DNA of 33,023 nucleotides from an uncultured bacterium (GTDB taxonomy: Bacteria > SAR324 > NAC60-12), in assembly GCA_964010765.1 (NCBI GenBank), contig CAXGMD010000036.1, forward strand, positions 1-33,023, read 5' to 3'. Position 1 is the stretch's first letter; the number at the start of each line of letters is the position of its first letter. The notes under the pieces were generated by a model. The model was given only the letters and a program-made list of their open reading frames with translations, had not been told where the DNA came from and did no database searches. The position numbers and the translations under genes were made by a program. Below, piece by piece: positions 13,849-23,648 of the stretch.

Positions 13849-14940
13849 CTAGGGTTTTTCCTTCGGGTTTTGGGAGGTGATCATTTGTGCTTGTTGTTGT
13901 AGCCAGTCACGGTCTTGCAGTTCATCACGATTCTGCCATTCCTCAAACAAGGTACGCAGGGCAGTCCATTGATGTAGTGCCGGACGTTCGTGCAACATTC
14001 TGTGAGCATCTCGAATAGTCCCAGGGATGGAATCAAGAAAGTACCACTTACCCTTGATGGCTGAAAGGTATCCATAAGTACCCAAGGAGCGCAATCGACG
14101 TAGCAGAACAAATTGCTCTAGTTCGCTGGTAAAGTGCTTCGGGTCAATCAGGCAATGCCGTGCACCAAGTTCCTGGTAATCATCTCGAAGTTGCTCACGT
14201 AGCGCTTCATTCAGTCCGGCCTTGGAAGCGTGAAGTAGAGCGGCTAGGTCGTAATGTGGTGCTCCAATTCCACCCGACTGGTAATCAATCATGTATAATT
14301 GATCATGATGACACATCAGGTTACGGGACTGGAAGTCCCGTGAGACAAACACCGTTCTTGGCAGCCTGCCCACCGTTTCAGCCAGCGTCGATAGTTCTTC
14401 ACTAAGAGTTGCAGTAACAGGACTATCGGGTACAAAGGCTTCCCAGAATCTTTGACGAAAGTATTGGAGGTCCGCTTGGAAAAGTGCTGTGTTCGATTCA
14501 GGAGCAGCATGGCACCAGCTGCGATCAAAACCAACTGTTCCCTTGGTTTGCATTTGGATTAGTGCCTCAAGTGCTTCTTGGTAAACTTCTCGGATGCGCG
14601 CGGCAGCTTCGGGCACATTCGGATCCAGATCCATCAACCAGTCGGCCAGTGTCTGATCACCCAGATCCTCAAGCAGGTAGACCAGTTGCTGCCGATCTTC
14701 CGCGTAAATTTCAGGGACAGGGAGGCCCTGCTTTCGAAAGTGACGGGACATTGCCAAAAAAGCTTGGTTTTCGTCCTGGGCTGGATTGGTAACACCAACC
14801 CATGAGCAGCCGTTTCCTGCGGAGAATCGATAAATCTGTCGATCTGACCCATCACCACGCAGAGCAACAGGCGGAGCAGATAATGCAGGTAAGTGGTGGG
14901 CTGCCAATTGTTCCAAAAGAGGGAGCAGAGGGTCAGTCAT
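13849..14940 (-). CDS. APH/choline-kinase-fold sugar kinase, AmgK-like (MurNAc/GlcNAc anomeric kinase family)
   Basis: Motifs GDGSDRQIYR, LLEDLGD, SRDFQSRNLM, IDYQ, YDLAALL and RSLGTYGYL. Confidence 0.7.
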   Translation of the reverse strand: MTDPLLPLLEQLAAHHLPALSAPPVALRGDGSDRQIYRFSAGNGCSWVGVTNPAQDENQAFLAMSRHFRKQGLPVPEIYAEDRQQLVYLLEDLGDQTLADWLMDLDPNVPEAAARIREVYQEALEALIQMQTKGTVGFDRSWCHAAPESNTALFQADLQYFRQRFWEAFVPDSPVTATLSEELSTLAETVGRLPRTVFVSRDFQSRNLMCHHDQLYMIDYQSGGIGAPHYDLAALLHASKAGLNEALREQLRDDYQELGARHCLIDPKHFTSELEQFVLLRRLRSLGTYGYLSAIKGKWYFLDSIPGTIRDAHRMLHERPALHQWTALRTLFEEWQNRDELQDRDWLQQQAQMITSQNPKEKP

Positions 14941-16997: not shown

Positions 16998-17026
16998 TTG
17001 AAGGAAGTGCAAAATCGCTGTAAACT
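16998..17026 (+). promoter_or_regulatory. Candidate sigma70 promoter upstream of infA-mreB
   Basis: TTGAAG-N17-TAAACT in the 225-bp intergenic region. Confidence 0.4.
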
Positions 17027-17138
17027 TGTTGGTTTACTGTCAAAAAAACTGCTTTGTTGTCAGAAATTGCCGTCCATCTACACTCAGGTCGGCATGCACT
17101 ACCCTGACAAACAGGTTTTCCCCTAACAATGGAGGCAT

Positions 17139-17369
17139 TTGAGCGACGACAAACTGGAACTGAAGGGCATCGTGGTGGACTCCTCCAACGGCATTTTTCG
17201 TGTGCAGTTGGAAAACGAGCATGTGGTGATTGGTCATCTCTCTGGCAAGATGAAGATGCACAAGATCCGCGTTTTGCCAGGGGACGAGGTCACCATTGAA
17301 CTGTCTGCCTATGACCTGAGCCGAGGACGCATTGTCCGTCGGGAAAAAATCGTACAAAAATCCAGCTAG
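17139..17369 (+). CDS. infA: Translation initiation factor IF-1
   Basis: Motifs FRVQLENEH, HLSGKMK and IRVLPGDEVTIELSAYDLSRGRI; TTG start with GGAGG RBS. Confidence 0.93.
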   Translation: MSDDKLELKGIVVDSSNGIFRVQLENEHVVIGHLSGKMKMHKIRVLPGDEVTIELSAYDLSRGRIVRREKIVQKSS

Positions 17370-17423
17370 CCCTCCCCATTTACCTTTCCTGTCCCTGCCA
17401 CTTCTGCCCCCGACGAGAACCGC

Positions 17424-18467
17424 ATGTTTGGACGGAAAAAGCTCTCAAATTGGTTTGCAGAAGATCTCGCTATTGATCTTGGCACTGCCAATACCTTGGT
17501 TTTTTTGCGTGAAGCTGGGATTGTCATTCGTGAGCCCTCGGTAGTTGCTGTCAAGCGCGATCAACGAGGGGCTCTCAAGGTGTTGGCCGTTGGACGTGAA
17601 GCCAAGGAAATGGTTGGCAAGACGCCAGACACGATTATGGCGATCCGGCCGCTGAAAGACGGGGTCATCTCCGACTTTGATGTGGCTGAACAGATGCTGC
17701 GTCATTTCATTCAACATGTGCAGCAGCGCCAAGGATTCCTGCGCTTCAAACCACGTATTGTTATCGCAGTCCCTTCTGGTATCACCCAAGTCGAAAAACG
17801 GGCTGTGCGTGAATCTGCTCTCTCTGCAGGAGCCCGTGAGGTATTCCTGATCGAGGAACCAATGGCAGCAGCTATCGGTGCAGGACTGCCGATTGCTGAA
17901 CCCAGCGGGAACTTCGTTGTTGACATTGGTGGCGGTACGACCGAAGTTGCCGTTCTCTCGATGGCCGGGATCGTTTACAGTAGTTCGCTACGCATGGCTG
18001 GCGACAAGATGGACGAGGCTATTGTTCAGTACCTGAAACAGAAGTACAATCTACTGATTGGCGAACGAACCGCAGAAGAACTTAAGCTCAACATTGGCTC
18101 TGCTGCTCCACGTTCCCAACCGCTACAGTTGGAAGTCAAGGGGCGCGATCAAGTTGGTGGCAACCCAAAGGTTCTGCTGGTCAATGACGAAGAAATCCGC
18201 TTTTGTCTCAAAGAAGTCTACGATAGCATCGTCCACGCAATTCGGGTTGCGCTCGAGCAGACACCACCAGAATTGGCGGCTGACATCATCGAAAAAGGCA
18301 TCGTGCTAGCTGGTGGAGGTTCACTGCTTCATGGTATGGATGTCCTGCTCCGCGAACGAACAGGATTGCCCGTCTTCTATGCCGAGGATCCTTTGGATGC
18401 AGTGGTCAAGGGAACCGGTGCGATGCTTGATCAGATGGAACTACTGGCCTCCATCGCTCTCGACTGA
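17424..18467 (+). CDS. mreB: Rod shape-determining actin homologue MreB
   Basis: Motifs IDLGTANTL, IRPLKDGVI, EEPMAAAIGAG, VDIGGGTTE and LAGGGSLL. Confidence 0.97.
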   Translation: MFGRKKLSNWFAEDLAIDLGTANTLVFLREAGIVIREPSVVAVKRDQRGALKVLAVGREAKEMVGKTPDTIMAIRPLKDGVISDFDVAEQMLRHFIQHVQQRQGFLRFKPRIVIAVPSGITQVEKRAVRESALSAGAREVFLIEEPMAAAIGAGLPIAEPSGNFVVDIGGGTTEVAVLSMAGIVYSSSLRMAGDKMDEAIVQYLKQKYNLLIGERTAEELKLNIGSAAPRSQPLQLEVKGRDQVGGNPKVLLVNDEEIRFCLKEVYDSIVHAIRVALEQTPPELAADIIEKGIVLAGGGSLLHGMDVLLRERTGLPVFYAEDPLDAVVKGTGAMLDQMELLASIALD

Positions 18468-18508
18468 ATGAATCCTGACGTTGTCCGCTCTTTCTGCAAG
18501 GAGATTTT

Positions 18509-19498
18509 GTGAGCACACCCGATACCTCCATCTACATTGTCGGTACCAACCGAACCTGGCAGATTCGTGCAAAGACACTCAAGCTGATCCTAACCTCAAC
18601 TGTACTATTGCTGATAGGGCTGGCGGCAGCTCTGCTCTACCAAAGCATCTGGCATCTGCAGGTCGTTGGCGGTTGGGAGGAACGTTACGCCGCAGAGAAT
18701 GAGCGCAACGAAAAAATGCGGAGTGTGATTGAAGATCTGCGGGAGCGTGTGGTGGATCGGGGAACTCTGGAGATGCGACAAGCGATTTACAGCAATGGTC
18801 CTGATCCCGAAGAACTACTCCAAAAAAACCAGCGACAGCAGGAAACCATCGAAGCTCAGCAATTGCGTATCGAGCAACTGCAGTCAGAGACCAATGATCA
18901 GCAGGTCAAGCTGCTTGAGTTGGACGTTCAACTCACCGATGAGATCGCTCGCTATGCCTCACTGCAAGAGAGCCATCAACAACTGGAGATTCAGCGTGCT
19001 ATTTTGCAGGACAACCTGACTTCCCTAAATGAAGAACTAGTACAGCAGCAGACACAGGGTGCTGAACTACAGAAGCAGATCCTCAGTTTACAAAAGCAAC
19101 TGGCAGCCATTCCCAAGGTTGTTGAAAAACCAACACAAACCCTGGCCTCAACTGCAACTTCTCGTTCACCAGCACTTGCTGGCCCAAGTCCCGTAGCTAT
19201 AGAGAAAATACAACTCAACAACCGTAACGGACAACTCAATGTCCGCTTCCAACTGAGCAACCGTGATCGCAAGCGTCAGACTGGGTTCCTACAGACCTTC
19301 CTAGTGTATGCTGATGACGCAGTTACACCAGTGAAAATCACAGATCATTTTGCTGATCCTTTTGCCATCCGGAATTTCAAGAACGTTCGGGCAGAGTTTA
19401 AAAATTGGGACAAGAATTCCCTACTACGAGTAGTGGCTTGGAATGCGAAAAAGCAGAGAGTTTACGACAAAACCTTCCCTTTGAACAAAGTCAACTAA
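18509..19498 (+). CDS. Membrane-anchored coiled-coil protein with a beta-rich C-terminal domain
   Basis: One TM (LILTSTVLLLIGLAAALLY), long Q/E/L heptad region, T/S/P linker and alternating beta-strand C-terminus; GTG start after AAGGAG. Confidence 0.75.
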   Translation: MSTPDTSIYIVGTNRTWQIRAKTLKLILTSTVLLLIGLAAALLYQSIWHLQVVGGWEERYAAENERNEKMRSVIEDLRERVVDRGTLEMRQAIYSNGPDPEELLQKNQRQQETIEAQQLRIEQLQSETNDQQVKLLELDVQLTDEIARYASLQESHQQLEIQRAILQDNLTSLNEELVQQQTQGAELQKQILSLQKQLAAIPKVVEKPTQTLASTATSRSPALAGPSPVAIEKIQLNNRNGQLNVRFQLSNRDRKRQTGFLQTFLVYADDAVTPVKITDHFADPFAIRNFKNVRAEFKNWDKNSLLRVVAWNAKKQRVYDKTFPLNKVN

Positions 19499-19522
19499 AG
19501 CCCCCCTAACCAACGCTCCAGA

Positions 19523-20524
19523 ATGGAGATGCTACCAGCGGACCTGAGAAGTTACCTTGAAACTCTGGGGCTACTCCAAATTGGTCAAGATTTCCAGGCC
19601 ACACCCTTGACTGGTGGTGTTTCTTCAGACATCTGGCTCCTGGAAACGAAACAACGACGCTTCTGCGTCAAACGGGCCTTGCCTAAGCTGAAGGTAGCTC
19701 AAGATTGGTTTGCACCACTGGATCGTAATCGATACGAACGCCACTGGTATCAACTAGCTCATCAGATTGTTCCTGGCAGTGTTCCTCAAGTTTTGGCTGC
19801 AGACGATGCTGCTCTCCTGTTCGCCATGGAATATCTGGATCCTGAACAGCATCTCCTTTGGAAAACCGAATTACTGGAAGGGCGCATCAACCCTTCGTTT
19901 GCAGCCCAAGTCGGGGAAAGGCTTGGAAAAATTCATTCAGCCACAGCTCACCGTTCAGACCTTGCCGATGCTTTTGCAACAGGTTCTAATTTTGAACAAC
20001 TCCGACTGGAACCCTACCTACGAGCAACAGCCCTTCGTCATTCCGAATTCACTACTATTCTGCAGAGCCTTGCAGACAAAACAGCTCATCAAAAACTCAC
20101 ACTTGTTCATGGAGATATCAGCCCCAAAAATATTCTGGAAGGACCTCAAGGACCTGTCTTTCTCGATGCAGAATGTGCTTGGTACGGCGATCCAGCTTTC
20201 GACTTGGCGTTCTGTCTGAATCACCTGCTGCTGAAAACCATTGTCCAACCTGAACGTCTACCGGCTCTGCAGGAAAGCTTTATGATGTTGCAACAAGCCT
20301 ATCTAGAGCAAGTCGACTGGGAAGCACCCGCAGAGCTTGAAGCCAGAACTGCCGCATTGTTACCTGGCTTACTGTTGGCTCGGGTTGATGGTAAATCGCC
20401 TGTCGAGTATCTACAAACAGAGGCACATCGAGAGTTGGTTCGCAGTGTTGCTTTTCCTCTCCTTCGAAAAGCTCCCAGAAATTTAGCTGACATTTGTGAC
20501 GCTTGGAGAAACGTATGGGCCTAG
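19523..20524 (+). CDS. APH-family kinase related to 5-methylthioribose kinase (substrate unknown)
   Basis: Motifs GGVSSDIW, CVKRALP, LVHGDISPKNIL and FLDAECAWYGDPAFD. Confidence 0.8.
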   Translation: MEMLPADLRSYLETLGLLQIGQDFQATPLTGGVSSDIWLLETKQRRFCVKRALPKLKVAQDWFAPLDRNRYERHWYQLAHQIVPGSVPQVLAADDAALLFAMEYLDPEQHLLWKTELLEGRINPSFAAQVGERLGKIHSATAHRSDLADAFATGSNFEQLRLEPYLRATALRHSEFTTILQSLADKTAHQKLTLVHGDISPKNILEGPQGPVFLDAECAWYGDPAFDLAFCLNHLLLKTIVQPERLPALQESFMMLQQAYLEQVDWEAPAELEARTAALLPGLLLARVDGKSPVEYLQTEAHRELVRSVAFPLLRKAPRNLADICDAWRNVWA

Positions 20525-21804
20525 ACACCACTATCGCCAAATTGCAAGGTCGCCAAGTATGGGACTCCCGTGGTAGACCAACAGTCGAAGTAGATTTGTG
20601 GCTGTCAGACGGTTCTTTAGGTCGAGGTGTTGCTCCAGCTGGGGCATCTCGAGGTTCGGCTGAAGCGGTTGACTTGCGTGATGGAGGTTCAGCACTAGGT
20701 GGCTTTGGTGTGCGTAACGCACTCAATCTACTGAACGGGGAAATTGCCAAAAATCTGCAGGGAAAACACTTCACCAACCAGGCGGAACTGGATCAAGAAT
20801 TAATTGAGCTTGATGGAACCCCTAACAAATCTCGACTTGGTGGAAATAGTCTCATAGCCACTTCCTTGGCATTCGCGCAAGCTCAAGCAGCCCATCAGCG
20901 GCAACCACTCTGGCAATCACTCTGTACAAGCACCCCAGCCTACCTACCTTTACCTGAAATTCAGCTCTTTGGTGGTGGAGCACACGCAGCTGGACGAATC
21001 GACATTCAGGATTTCATGCTGATTGCGGTAGGTGCCCAAACTTTTGGCGAAGCACTGGAATGGACGGCCGAAGTATATCGTACAGCCGGTGGGCTATTGC
21101 ATGAAAGTGGGCTCTTGGCTGGTGTAGCTGATGAAGGTGGTTGGTGGCCCCAGTTTTCTAGCAATGAAGAAGCACTGGAGTGGAGTGTTAGAGCCATTGA
21201 AGCTGCAGGCTTCAAACCAGGTCAAGACTTAGCGATTTCTCTGGATGTGGCTGCTTCTGAATTTGGGCAATCAGGCCGCTATCGTCTCAGCCGAGATCAG
21301 CGTGTGCTGAATCGCACAGAGATGCTGGAACTTCTGAAGAACTGGCTGAAACACTACCCGATTATCTCCTTGGAAGATCCTCTCGCTGAAGATGATGACT
21401 GGAAAGCGATACTTCCAGCTCTGGGACGTCCTGTTCAAGTCATTGGTGATGACTTTCTGGTGACCAATGCCAGCCGAGTTCAGCAAGCAGCAACTCATCA
21501 ATCCTGTAATGCACTGCTGGTCAAGCCGAATCAAGCTGGGACTTTGACTGAAACCAAGGCCGCCTTGGACGCTGCACATGCCGCAGGATGGCAAGCCGTT
21601 GTTTCAGCTCGTTCTGGAGAGACTGAAGATGTAGCGATTGTGCACCTGGCTGTAGGTTGGGGAGCCACTCAATTGAAGGTTGGTTCCTTCTCACGCTCAG
21701 AACGGATGGCTAAGTGGAATGAGGCTTTGCGGATTGGAGAGGCTTTAGGCTCTACTCAACTACCATCAAAGGATTGGTTTCCTTGGTATCAGCAGAATGT
21801 CTGA
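20515..21804 (+). CDS. eno: Enolase-family protein with a non-canonical active site
   Basis: Motifs DSRGRPTVE, GASRG, DEGG, LDVAASEF, LEDPL, GDDFLVTN, VKPNQAG and RSGETED. ATG at 20515 after GGAGA overlaps the kinase gene end. Confidence 0.85.
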   Translation: MGLDTTIAKLQGRQVWDSRGRPTVEVDLWLSDGSLGRGVAPAGASRGSAEAVDLRDGGSALGGFGVRNALNLLNGEIAKNLQGKHFTNQAELDQELIELDGTPNKSRLGGNSLIATSLAFAQAQAAHQRQPLWQSLCTSTPAYLPLPEIQLFGGGAHAAGRIDIQDFMLIAVGAQTFGEALEWTAEVYRTAGGLLHESGLLAGVADEGGWWPQFSSNEEALEWSVRAIEAAGFKPGQDLAISLDVAASEFGQSGRYRLSRDQRVLNRTEMLELLKNWLKHYPIISLEDPLAEDDDWKAILPALGRPVQVIGDDFLVTNASRVQQAATHQSCNALLVKPNQAGTLTETKAALDAAHAAGWQAVVSARSGETEDVAIVHLAVGWGATQLKVGSFSRSERMAKWNEALRIGEALGSTQLPSKDWFPWYQQNV

Positions 21805-21849
21805 ATGGAATAACAATACGACACTTGGTTCAGCGAACGCACTATCAAC

Positions 21850-22380
21850 TCATTGGGGAGGGGGCAGAAAATCTTCTTTCTTTTCAAGTTCGGTAATCAG
21901 TTTGCTCAGTGAAACAACTAATTCTCGCATAATCGCTGCTTGGTCCTGATCACTGCTAGGCGCTCCAGAGTTGTTGATCTTTCTGCTCAACTGCTGAAAT
22001 TCCTCGTTTCTTTTACTCATCTCAGACTGTAATTTCCTAACCTTCGACAAGTAGTGGTCGTTCAACTCCTTGTACTTGTCATTGTAGAGTTCGTAAGCAT
22101 CCAAAGAGTTATCCAGATCTGCTCTCATGCGCTCCAATTCCTCTTCCTTGTTTTGAATTTCCTCCTCGCGCTGTACTAGACGATTTTCCATCTCATGGAT
22201 TTCATGGTGTTGGGCATCCAGTTCTTGTTGCTGCTGCTGCAACCGTTCTGCCCAGATTTTCAAGTCCTCAACACTGAGTTTCAGCAAGCTCTCAATTTGT
22301 CCCTTGCCTTCGCAAATCCGACATTCCGGATCATCTAATGTCAGGCCATCGCAGACGAAGCACTTAATCTTTACAATCAT
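21850..22380 (-). CDS. Hypothetical protein with an N-terminal CxxC...CxxCxGxG zinc finger and a long coiled coil
   Basis: CFVCDG...CRICEGKG followed by E/Q-rich heptads; ATG at 22380 after GAGAGG RBS. Confidence 0.7.
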   Translation of the reverse strand: MIVKIKCFVCDGLTLDDPECRICEGKGQIESLLKLSVEDLKIWAERLQQQQQELDAQHHEIHEMENRLVQREEEIQNKEEELERMRADLDNSLDAYELYNDKYKELNDHYLSKVRKLQSEMSKRNEEFQQLSRKINNSGAPSSDQDQAAIMRELVVSLSKLITELEKKEDFLPPPQ

Positions 22381-22688
22381 GTTACCTCTCATTGATCCTG
22401 AATATTTGTTTTAAAGCTCTGCTAGACTCCGAGACCATTCCATCAAAAGATTTTTCGCGGACCACCTTTTCCTCGGTTTTGTGACTGATTTTTCGGAATT
22501 TGTTGGAATCAATTTGATCTGAATTACGTAGTTTTTTTCAAAAAAATATTTTTGTCTCAATTTAGTCAAGCAAAATTGCTCTGACTTCTATGGGTCAGCA
22601 CTTTTTCTGCTTTGTCGACTGGCAACTCAAAGGTACTGACTGGCTGCTCTATATCCCTCACGGTATTCCCAGCAGAAAACACTATGGA

Positions 22689-22742: not shown

Positions 22743-23648
22743 CTAGTACACTTCTGGTACATGGAATTGCTCCTCTCGTGGAGGACGCTGGTAATCCTTC
22801 GGTAGCGGAGGTCTCTCTGGAATCTTGATCACAGATGGCAGAACATCTTTGTAATCCACTTTGCTCAGAACATGATGAATACAATTGAGTCGAGCACGGC
22901 GTTTATCATCACCCTCTACTCCAAACCAAGGAGCTTCTGGAATATTTGAGAAGTTTAGCATCGTATCCTTGGCCTTGGAATACTCGACCCAGCGAGAGAT
23001 TGACTCCATATCCATTGGGCTCAGTTTCCAGCGCTTGCCCGGATCTTTGGCTCGATCATGAAAGCGTCGCTCTTGTTCTTCATCACTGACTGAGAACCAA
23101 TACTTGAGCAGGATAATTCCAGAGCGGATCAGCATTCGCTCAAACTCTGGACAACTGCGCTGAAACTCTTCGTACTGCTCGTCGGTACAAAAGCCCATTA
23201 CCCGCTCAACACCTGCCCGGTTGTACCAACTGCGATCAAAGATAACAATCTCTCCTGCAGCCGGTAACTCACGCACATAGCGCTGAAAGTACCATTGTGT
23301 CTTCTCTTTCTCTGTCGGTGTTCCCAAAGCTACTACTCTACAGCCCCGTGGATTCAGTGGTTCGGTAATACGCTTGATAACACCACCCTTACCAGCGGCA
23401 TCACGGCCCTCAAATAACATGACAACCTTGAGGCCCTTCTGCTTGATCCAGGTCTGCCACTTGACCAACTCAAGTTGCAGTCTTACCAACTCTGACTCAT
23501 AGAAAGACTTGTTTAATCTCTCATGCTTAATATGTACATCTATGCGAGGAACTTCTTCTACCGTAGGAGACGTATCTGGCTTCTTAGCCGCCTTTACAAC
23601 GTCTTGTTGTCCCCTTTGTTCCTTCTTCTTGTCAGCTTTCTTGCCCAT
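22743..23648 (-). CDS. ppk2: Polyphosphate kinase 2 (single domain)
   Basis: Motifs FEGRDAAGKGG, WYFQRY, FDRSWYNRAGVERVMGF, RWKLSPMD and DDKRRARLN. Confidence 0.95.
   Translation of the reverse strand: MGKKADKKKEQRGQQDVVKAAKKPDTSPTVEEVPRIDVHIKHERLNKSFYESELVRLQLELVKWQTWIKQKGLKVVMLFEGRDAAGKGGVIKRITEPLNPRGCRVVALGTPTEKEKTQWYFQRYVRELPAAGEIVIFDRSWYNRAGVERVMGFCTDEQYEEFQRSCPEFERMLIRSGIILLKYWFSVSDEEQERRFHDRAKDPGKRWKLSPMDMESISRWVEYSKAKDTMLNFSNIPEAPWFGVEGDDKRRARLNCIHHVLSKVDYKDVLPSVIKIPERPPLPKDYQRPPREEQFHVPEVY

Follow-up and report, generated by a model that had tools for sequence, protein, structure and literature searches.

Enolase (EC 4.2.1.11) is the textbook single-function branch of its superfamily, and its subgroup is treated as isofunctional. 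Preceded by a glycerate 2-kinase, it makes up the lower branch in several routes: glyoxylate, aldarate, tartrate, serine-cycle and non-phosphorylative Entner-Doudoroff. Here we report on two overlapping genes, one for a small-molecule kinase of the APH family and one for a variant enolase, in a window of 33,023 nucleotides (contig CAXGMD010000036.1, positions 1 to 33,023, assembly GCA_964010765.1) from an uncultured bacterium of the SAR324 lineage; "the window" refers to this whole stretch throughout. The pair is a genuine, conserved module of two enzymes that is so far uncharacterised and falls within a known enzyme family; the class of its mechanism is well constrained. We hold with moderate confidence that the two genes form a self-contained, horizontally mobile module, and we see an even chance that the encoded enzymes would phosphorylate a glycerate-like 2-hydroxy acid and then carry out an enolase-type elimination to phosphoenolpyruvate (PEP).

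The same proposed logic, phosphorylation at O2 followed by dehydration to PEP, is found in the combination of enolase with a glycerate 2-kinase of the MOFRL type (GckA/TtuD) or of class I (GarK/GlxK). That route shares neighbours with the pair (GarL, GarR, hydroxyacid dehydrogenases, aldehyde dehydrogenase and ppc), but the kinase of the pair has the APH fold and not that of MOFRL or Gly_kinase, and its enolase is a dedicated variant. The variant resembles canonical enolase in its two-domain fold, metal carboxylates, catalytic Lys and Glu, second Lys, GAS-loop Ser, lid-loop His and Arg-Ser phosphate site. In contrast to canonical enolase, it has Asp168, Ala373, Ala for Gly before the DEGG motif and usually a lid-loop Arg, falls into a separate clade, is partnered with a kinase, and is accessory to a canonical copy in 49 of 50 genomes. 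The kinase shares its APH/protein-kinase-like fold with methylthioribose kinase (MtnK, PDB 2olc), yet it reaches only 75 bits of the MtnK cut-off of 275, and the methionine-salvage context is absent.

Precedents for the individual elements are known. PhpH, the carboxyphosphonoenolpyruvate synthase of phosphinothricin biosynthesis, is a re-tooled enolase homologue that acts on a 2-phospho acid other than 2-phosphoglycerate, and ComA (phosphosulfolactate synthase), an enzyme of another fold that runs in the synthetic direction, adds sulfite at C3 of PEP. PhpH is part of a biosynthetic cluster, and neither enzyme is coupled to an APH kinase. In levulinate catabolism (LvaA/LvaC) and in ACAD10/11, an APH-family kinase activates a hydroxyl group and a partner enzyme then eliminates it; there the phosphate leaves and the partner is an acyl-CoA dehydrogenase, whereas here the phosphate is expected to stay. 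Within the searchable full-text literature (subscription journals and supplements lie outside this scope), we found no publication on the variant enolase clade, on an APH-fold glycerate kinase or on the pair, nor any assay of a clade member. The variant clade is not mentioned in the accessible text of two papers on the superfamily (PMC4570537, PMC5467563), nor is enolase mentioned in that of a paper on the microbial kinome (PMC1821047). Wherever the source gives a name, the best 120 database relatives of the window enolase are called 'phosphopyruvate hydratase' or 'enolase'.

Both genes lie on the + strand. The kinase open reading frame (ORF; 19523-20524) encodes an APH/protein-kinase-like small-molecule kinase of 333 aa, and the enolase ORF (20515-21804, open from 20503) encodes a protein of 429 aa belonging to the Asp168/Ala373 clade. 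Direct reading of the coupling junction (20505..20524, + strand) places a GGAG at 20505-20508, the enolase ATG at 20515-20517 after a spacer of 6 nt, and the kinase stop codon TAG at 20522-20524. The overlap of 10 nt claimed in a preliminary description of this DNA is borne out by this reading and by the ORF coordinates; an alternative TTG upstream, at 20503, would extend it to 22 nt. Contigs from four of four metatranscriptome libraries, which stem from separate studies, cover both genes and bridge the junction, which is consistent with co-transcription of kinase and enolase.

The kinase matches Pfam PF01636 with 69.7 bits (cut-off 23.2) and possesses the ATP-binding Lys, the HGD...N loop and the Mg-binding Asp of the APH family. 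Its catalytic motifs are at K50 (19670-19672), E72, H196-G197-D198 (20108-20116), N203 and D215-A-E217 (20165-20173), all on the + strand, and the motif residues, among them K50, the HGD at 196-198, N203 and D215, are invariant across 45 aligned members of the family. Methylthioribose kinase is the best named relative both in NCBIfam and in the PDB: MtnK (2olc) is the nearest solved structure by sequence (E 5.9e-8), and the score against the MtnK model TIGR01767 (75.5 bits, cut-off 275) does not reach the equivalog level. Pfam and NCBIfam scans gave no match to the MOFRL or the Gly_kinase family of glycerate kinases; the protein may work like a glycerate 2-kinase despite its other fold. The C-lobe contains many Arg, Lys and His residues that are invariant in the 45-sequence alignment, which would suit an acidic substrate. 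The family comprises 879 clusters (50% identity) at E <= 1e-30, and a look-up of the kinase in the ESM Atlas returned only generic 'phosphotransferase family' clusters.

Two relatives of the kinase have other fusion partners, each seen in a single representative in which a gene-calling artefact is possible. One (P0289, 720 aa, 49% identical) is fused to a UxuA mannonate dehydratase domain, the other (P0294, 519 aa, 47% identical) to a MobA-like nucleotidyltransferase domain. The NTP_transf_3 domain of P0294 matched MobA and gave no match to a cytidylyltransferase (CpgD). A lead towards CpgD was dropped; the accessible part of the preprint concerned deals with a cytidylyltransferase and never mentions enolase (10.64898/2026.05.18.725363). 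According to the same part of that preprint, both enantiomers of 2-phosphoglycerate are commercially sold.

The window enolase has the architecture of the family, with 143.6 bits for Enolase_N, 275 bits for Enolase_C and 449.3 bits for TIGR01060 (cut-off 300). Every motif listed in the preliminary description is present in the translation: LDVAASEF (D244), LEDP (E287), GDD (D312), VKPNQ (K337) and DEGG (E207), and also SARSGE (A365, R366, S367), DIQDFM (D166), GASRG, GGWWP and EIQLFGG. We take the relevant positions to correspond to Asp246, Glu295, Asp320, Lys345, Glu211, Lys396, Arg374-Ser375, Glu168 and His373 of yeast enolase, and the mechanistic roles of these residues are those given in the enolase literature. 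Across an alignment of 42 clade members, the metal ligands, the catalytic Lys and Glu, the second Lys and the Arg-Ser phosphate site are all retained: Glu207 (21133..21135, the catalytic acid, canonical Glu211), K337 (21523-21525) and K388 (21676-21678), all on the + strand, are invariant, as are D244, E287, D312, S45, R366 and S367.

The site that faces the C3 hydroxyl is different. We compared 87 variants (from the species loci, from five plasmid records including two haloarchaeal ones, and from the window) with 21 canonical enolases of the same genomes. Asp166 (codon 21010..21012, + strand) occupies the position of canonical Glu168 and Ala365 (codon 21607..21609, + strand) that of His373; Asp and Ala are found in 87/87 variants, Glu and His in 21/21 canonical copies. 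The two exchanges singled out in the preliminary description, E168D and H373A, are therefore invariant markers of the clade. Two further positions, Ala before DEGG and Glu in RSER, are likewise fixed in all 87 variants, and the canonical copies differ at the first three of the four positions in 21/21 cases and at the RSER position in 19/21. The same signature extends to the best 120 database relatives (60-95% identical), with SARSGE and [IV]KPNQ in 120/120, DEGG[YFW]WP in 119/120 and D[IV]QDFM in 108/120, the other 12 giving no match to the last pattern. A quick maximum-likelihood tree, built from 38 of the 87 variants (the other 49 were left out to save time) and the 21 canonical enolases, separates variants from canonical copies by one branch with a support of 100 in the Shimodaira-Hasegawa-like approximate likelihood-ratio test.

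Other changes are less general. The preliminary description had suggested that the new Arg of GASRG might bind an anion, but this Arg is not a feature of the family, because only 19 of the 120 relatives have GASRG and 89 have GASTG. A basic residue that recurs far more widely lies in the lid loop: the segment H157-A-A-G-R161 (20983..20997, + strand) has Arg where canonical enolases carry Asp or Asn, and an Arg or Lys within four residues after GGxHA occurs in 87/87 and 119/119 variants and in 0/20 canonical enolases. As a universal marker of the clade the lid-loop Arg was rejected; it is common but not defining, since it is absent from 10 of 84 members found as fusion proteins. The exchange of Ala for Trp (GGxWP) and the EIQxFGG loop are confined to the main subclade, and the Rhodococcus/Methylobacterium and haloarchaeal subclades have DEGGLSP or DEGGYAP, and MVNILSGG.

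Linkage of the two genes was surveyed in 80 species loci, with a hidden Markov model of the kinase family (E<=1e-8) and with adjacency defined as overlap or a distance within 300 nt. The kinase adjoins or overlaps the enolase in 73/80 loci and lies within 3 kb in 75/80 and within 10 kb in 78/80; by blastp (E < 1e-20) it was found in 76/80 loci, and two of the four loci without a hit have the enolase at a contig edge. The commonest junction is an overlap of 4 nt. Rhodococcus opacus (Actinomycetota; strain PD630 among the carriers) and Methylobacterium nodulans have the pair in reversed order, enolase then kinase, and haloarchaea (Halomarina, Haladaptatus) also possess it, so that the adjacency of kinase and enolase is conserved in other taxa, across phyla and two domains. 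The linkage is closer still in fusion proteins. Among 120 listed proteins of more than 751 aa that resemble the window enolase, 84 are of the SARSGE type and 34 of the SHRSGE type; 83 of the 84 are fusions of an N-terminal kinase with a C-terminal enolase, whereas none of the 34 contains the kinase. The one remaining long SARSGE protein (P0397, 752 aa), which is 60% identical to the window enolase and of the Asp168 type, has a C-terminal D-isomer-specific 2-hydroxyacid dehydrogenase (PF00389 and PF02826). A complex prediction for kinase and enolase, both entered as alignments, gave a score of 0.00 and a mark of 0.32 and weighs neither way.

The module is widespread and patchy. A pattern scan of one genome per species (185,579 species) yielded at least 599 matching stretches, of which 590 were confirmed, and the tool estimates about 3400 overall; for a metagenome scan that includes fused members the estimate is about 7800. 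Among the matches listed, the closest named relatives of the locus are assemblies of the SAR324 cluster, with 93-96% protein identity. Within the window's phylum, 9 of 88 genomes encode the kinase at >=60% identity, and so do 6 of the 8 further members of its genus; the pair is an accessory trait in this phylum. Matches also occur in 31 plasmid records, with Azospirillum brasilense and Cupriavidus among the carriers, and in the tree the window protein groups with members of unrelated phyla, which fits horizontal spread.

The window's assembly is 92% complete and contains, on another contig, a canonical enolase of its own (G000:C44:19073-20329) with 674 bits for TIGR01060, against 449 for the window copy. 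This enolase has the motifs SHRSGE, DLQEFM, GASTGE, GGFAP and MMNIVNGG and is 44% identical to the window enolase. The second eno with SHRSGE that the preliminary description had proposed to look for is thus present, and the window copy is a paralog and not the housekeeping enolase. On the genomic side, neither of the two findings that would have spoken against a special role, a sole enolase or an adjacency restricted to this taxon, was made. Among 50 genomes with the pair, an intact canonical-type enolase (633-698 bits) is encoded in 44 and a fragmented one in five; the single exception, without any such enolase, is a 2.8-Mb assembly that is labelled as a metagenome-assembled genome (MAG). 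When the window's genome is included, a MOFRL glycerate 2-kinase is encoded in 47 of 51 pair genomes and a class-I glycerate kinase in three of the remaining four; 48 of the 51 have a phosphoglycerate mutase (iPGM or dPGM). The pair is thus an addition to the normal D-glycerate route and not a substitute for it. Two simple roles were rejected on these counts: that of a stand-in for an absent glycerate kinase (50/51 genomes have one) and that of a replacement bypassing an absent phosphoglycerate mutase (48/51 have one), although 2,3-bisphosphoglycerate as a substrate is still compatible with the latter count. One in-frame TAG each was seen in the canonical enolase gene of a SAR324 single-cell assembly (G001:C325:53594-54856) and in a GarD/UxaA-like gene of the window's genome (G000:C2:19205-20611).

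Gene neighbourhoods were compared for the 80 species loci and for 22 long metagenome loci with 107 scanned flanking ORFs. No third conserved gene was found within 10 kb of the 80 species loci. The recurrent families in this range are ABC ATPases (23/80 loci), D-2-hydroxyacid dehydrogenases (16/80, adjacent in 7), Zn-dependent alcohol dehydrogenases (Zn-ADH; 15/80), short-chain dehydrogenases/reductases (SDR; 12/80), glycerol-kinase-type FGGY proteins (10/80), hotdog thioesterases (9/80), aldo-keto reductases (9/80) and FAA-family hydrolases (6/80). Of the co-occurrences that the preliminary description proposed to survey, that with the kinase holds (73/80); D-2-hydroxyacid dehydrogenases recur at only some of the loci (16/80).

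Several loci are informative in detail. In the operon of Rhizobium panacihumi (L075), the APH kinase and, after it, the variant enolase are preceded by GarR, a MOFRL glycerate kinase and GarL, in this order, and followed by an MFS transporter, then a 2-hydroxyacid dehydrogenase, a hydratase-like FAA protein and finally an HpaI-like aldolase; its GarR and GarL both exceed the equivalog cut-offs. Judging from this operon and from the genome counts, the pair coexists with, and once adjoins, the full machinery that leads from D-glycerate to 2-phosphoglycerate. Replacement of an aldarate dehydratase by the pair in this operon was considered and rejected, as GudD (888 bits) and GarD (909 bits) are encoded on another contig of the same genome. 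In Rhizobium sp. N324, ppc, a PGDH-like dehydrogenase and the kinase share one strand, and a cupin, the enolase, an HpaD-like VOC dioxygenase and other genes lie on the opposite one. Rhodococcus has an FAA hydrolase, a dehydrogenase, the enolase, the kinase and a second FAA hydrolase. A LacI regulator in Paracoccus seriniphilus stands beside the oppositely transcribed kinase, enolase, a hydrolase-like gene, two SDRs and a sugar ABC system, and the protein resembling 2,4-didehydro-3-deoxy-L-rhamnonate hydrolase stays below its cut-off with 352 bits. In haloarchaea, MR/MLE dehydratases, a GarL-like aldolase, SDRs and an IlvC paralog accompany the kinase, the enolase and a cupin. On the haloarchaeal plasmids L085 and L089, the ketol-acid reductoisomerase (IlvC) paralog and the small cupin flank the pair, with several MR/MLE-family dehydratases nearby; the Halomarina paralog scores 285 bits against TIGR00465 (cut-off 226).

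An aldehyde dehydrogenase lies directly upstream of the pair in 3 of the 22 long metagenome loci. Contexts at other metagenome loci are an FAA hydrolase with an SDR and an amidohydrolase, and a gluconolactonase-type protein with two SDRs; at L160 an IlvD-type dehydratase is directly upstream of a fused gene, together with a DHDPS-type aldolase, and further contexts comprise GH2, GH3 or GH116 glycosidases, a GntP permease, and an EamA transporter with a thioesterase. Two of the 22 loci (L113, L166) have URO-D-family proteins one to two genes downstream of a fused kinase-enolase; the URO-D fold is shared with corrinoid methyltransferases. The neighbour genes are parts of non-phosphorylative sugar and sugar-acid routes, which end in a C3 aldehyde or 2-hydroxy acid, and they indicate C3 compounds of the glycerate type as end products of sugar and sugar-acid breakdown, and also PEP. 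Neither a sulfite exporter nor a sulfite oxidase was among the 29 annotated recurrent neighbour families or the 107 metagenome neighbours, and no tetronate gene was among the recurrent neighbours. The tetronate and sulfolactate substrates named in the preliminary description thus receive no specific support, and sulfolactate was kept only as a minority candidate. The phosphorylate-then-eliminate pathway of that description remains the best logic for the pair.

In the mechanism that we propose, the APH-fold kinase would transfer phosphate from ATP to the 2-hydroxyl group of a small 2-hydroxy acid that resembles glycerate. A free D-configured acid as the starting point is suggested by the tight, often fused partnership of the two enzymes, by the fusion or adjacency of a D-2-hydroxyacid dehydrogenase, and by the neighbouring enzymes that produce hydroxy acids. 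Because its two-metal, phosphate and carboxylate site is kept, the variant enolase would still bind a 2-phospho-carboxylate, and because Lys and Glu are kept, it would proceed by proton abstraction and beta-elimination: the Lys would take the C2 proton, and the C3 substituent would be expelled to yield PEP. PEP as the product fits the position of ppc beside the kinase and the self-sufficiency of the pair. The C3 pocket would be rebuilt by the changes from Glu to Asp and from His to Ala and usually by the new lid-loop Arg, and the module would join catabolic routes for C3 compounds, and non-phosphorylative ones for sugars and sugar acids, at their end.

The true substrate of the enolase is probably not ordinary D-2-phosphoglycerate, and that of the kinase not simply D-glycerate, because both residues flanking the C3 hydroxyl are invariantly replaced and the standard glycerate kinase and enolase coexist with the pair. 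More likely kinase substrates are L-glycerate or a derivative of D-lactate with another, perhaps anionic, leaving group at C3. In rough order, we place L-glycerate before the D-lactate derivatives, and these before plain D-glycerate with channelling. L-Glycerate could be released by diketo-acid hydrolases acting on L-series hexonates and would converge on the achiral PEP; the candidates among the D-lactate derivatives are D-sulfolactate, 3-phosphoglycerate (via 2,3-bisphosphoglycerate), 3-mercaptolactate and tartrate. An anionic or bulkier leaving group at C3 appears favoured by the lid-loop Arg of most members, though not by the neighbourhoods. Whether the Asp168/Ala373 clade represents a second reaction type within the enolase subgroup, forming PEP from a 2-phospho acid on which canonical enolase is unable to act, is a tentative idea to which we give less than even weight. 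Candidates for such a reaction are L-2-phosphoglycerate or a substrate that loses a group other than water from C3, such as D-2-phospho-3-sulfolactate (loss of sulfite), 2,3-bisphosphoglycerate (loss of phosphate) or 2-phospho-3-mercaptolactate (loss of a thiol).

Several observations weigh against this interpretation. The RNA-library contigs do not prove a single transcript, as carry-over of DNA is possible, and the window neighbours (an MreB-like ORF, a coiled-coil protein and PPK2) are uninformative on function. The wider context consists of themes and not of a single pathway, since the commonest families reach only 23/80 and 16/80 loci. By textbook logic, the GarL/GarR, hydroxypyruvate-reductase-like and aldehyde dehydrogenase neighbours would supply D-glycerate, which favours an explanation by ordinary isozymes. 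Among the fused members, 74 of 84 have a basic residue in the lid loop and 10 of 84 do not, which makes an additional anionic group less plausible. The PDB contains no clade member; the best match of the window enolase there is a canonical enolase (375 bits).

The isozyme explanation holds that the kinase is a D-glycerate 2-kinase of a new fold and the enolase an ordinary 2-phosphoglycerate enolase, both duplicated for extra flux, with Asp and Ala as tolerated drift. The pyruvate kinase of the tartrate operon offers a parallel for such flux-boosting duplicates, and a His373Asn mutant of yeast enolase keeps partial activity. The TIGR01060 score of 449 (above the cut-off of 300), the retention of the first-shell catalytic residues except for two, the recurrent neighbours that make D-glycerate or its precursors (GarL, GarR, 2-hydroxyacid dehydrogenases and aldehyde dehydrogenase) and the ppc gene adjoining the kinase in Rhizobium sp. 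N324 agree with it as well. However, the invariance of Glu168/His373 in 21/21 canonical enolases and their replacement in 87/87 variants point to selection for a different optimum. Most pair genomes already have a standard glycerate kinase (50/51) and a canonical enolase (49/50, the exception being the MAG), and in L075 a MOFRL glycerate kinase even belongs to the same operon. Nor would one expect obligate coupling and 83 fusions for a kinase whose product is a free central metabolite handled by the abundant housekeeping enolase, and we regard this explanation as unlikely.

The remaining alternatives are less likely than phosphorylation followed by elimination to PEP. Both altered side chains at the C3 site are shortened (Glu to Asp, His to Ala), which could make room for longer acid sugars: an aldonate, aldarate or tetronate phosphorylated at O2 would lose its 3-OH and so become a 2-keto-3-deoxy acid in the form of its enol phosphate. 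Of the alternatives, this one comes near to the bulkier C3 group of the preliminary description. HpcH aldolases, MR/MLE and GarD/UxaA-type dehydratases and TRAP, TTT and MFS acid transporters nearby, and the one representative of a UxuA-kinase fusion, are in line with such a phospho-dehydratase. Yet conventional dehydratases are also present (GudD and GarD in the genome of L075, IlvD-type at L160), and the Trp that replaces Ala in GG[YFW]WP may fill the pocket and not open it; we find this role quite improbable. Its later steps, in which the enol phosphate would be dephosphorylated, possibly with regeneration of ATP, and then cleaved by an aldolase, are just as doubtful, the module being mostly without an aldolase or phosphatase partner, also in the window. 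The variable gene order, with the kinase first in most loci but the enolase first in Rhodococcus and Methylobacterium nodulans, and the fact that most loci need no transporter or upstream enzyme would be compatible with a reversed sequence, in which the enolase would first convert a phosphorylated central metabolite and the kinase, like pyruvate kinase, would then pass the phosphate of the enol phosphate on to ADP. This is very improbable: the rebuilt C3 pocket and the link to enzymes that make free 2-hydroxy acids would be left unexplained, and we know of no APH-fold enzyme that runs in the direction of pyruvate kinase. Most improbable of all is a resistance cassette comprising an inhibitor-insensitive target enolase and a kinase that inactivates a natural enolase-directed antibiotic. 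Many antibiotic kinases belong to the APH family according to its description, the occurrence is scattered (9/88 genomes of the phylum) and in part on plasmids (31 records), and the active-site substitutions could weaken inhibitor binding; the 83 kinase-enolase fusion clusters and the dehydrogenase fusion, however, fit consecutive metabolic steps, and the neighbours are catabolic enzymes and transporters, with no recurrent mobile-element, efflux or biosynthetic context.

If the module forms PEP as proposed, it would be an undescribed step of carbon catabolism, possibly also of sulfur or phosphorus catabolism, and thousands of enolase annotations may be wrong in detail. A second reaction type, if true, would amount to a new and widespread entry into PEP, and the variant clade would show how the active site of enolase can be re-specified.

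In the SAR324-like genome itself, the pair consists of accessory genes without pathway neighbours. A gene for a coiled-coil protein (18509-19498, + strand) ends 24 nt before the start of the kinase, and a convergent one (21850-22392, - strand) lies on the other side of the pair; both gave only sub-threshold Pfam matches. The 24-nt gap between the upstream coiled-coil gene and the kinase is also bridged by RNA-library contigs, and the pair may be transcribed together with that gene. A scan of 17000-22600 for promoters and terminators gave fewer hits than shuffled sequences, none of them adjoining the pair. Among the neighbours, an MreB-like and an ABC-transporter-like ORF were recognised from their translations. 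The window also encodes a second APH-family kinase (13849-14940, - strand; 363 aa, PF01636 56 bits), which is unrelated to the subfamily of the enolase-coupled kinase and scores below threshold against two models of AmgK, the N-acetylmuramate/N-acetylglucosamine kinase (57 and 54 bits, cut-offs 500 and 550). About 1 kb downstream of the pair lies a PPK2 gene (22743-23648, - strand; PF03976, 351 bits). PPK2 beside the pair occurs in 0/76 other loci, and the arrangement is shared by three close SAR324-type loci (L003-L005) and one gammaproteobacterial MAG (L068).

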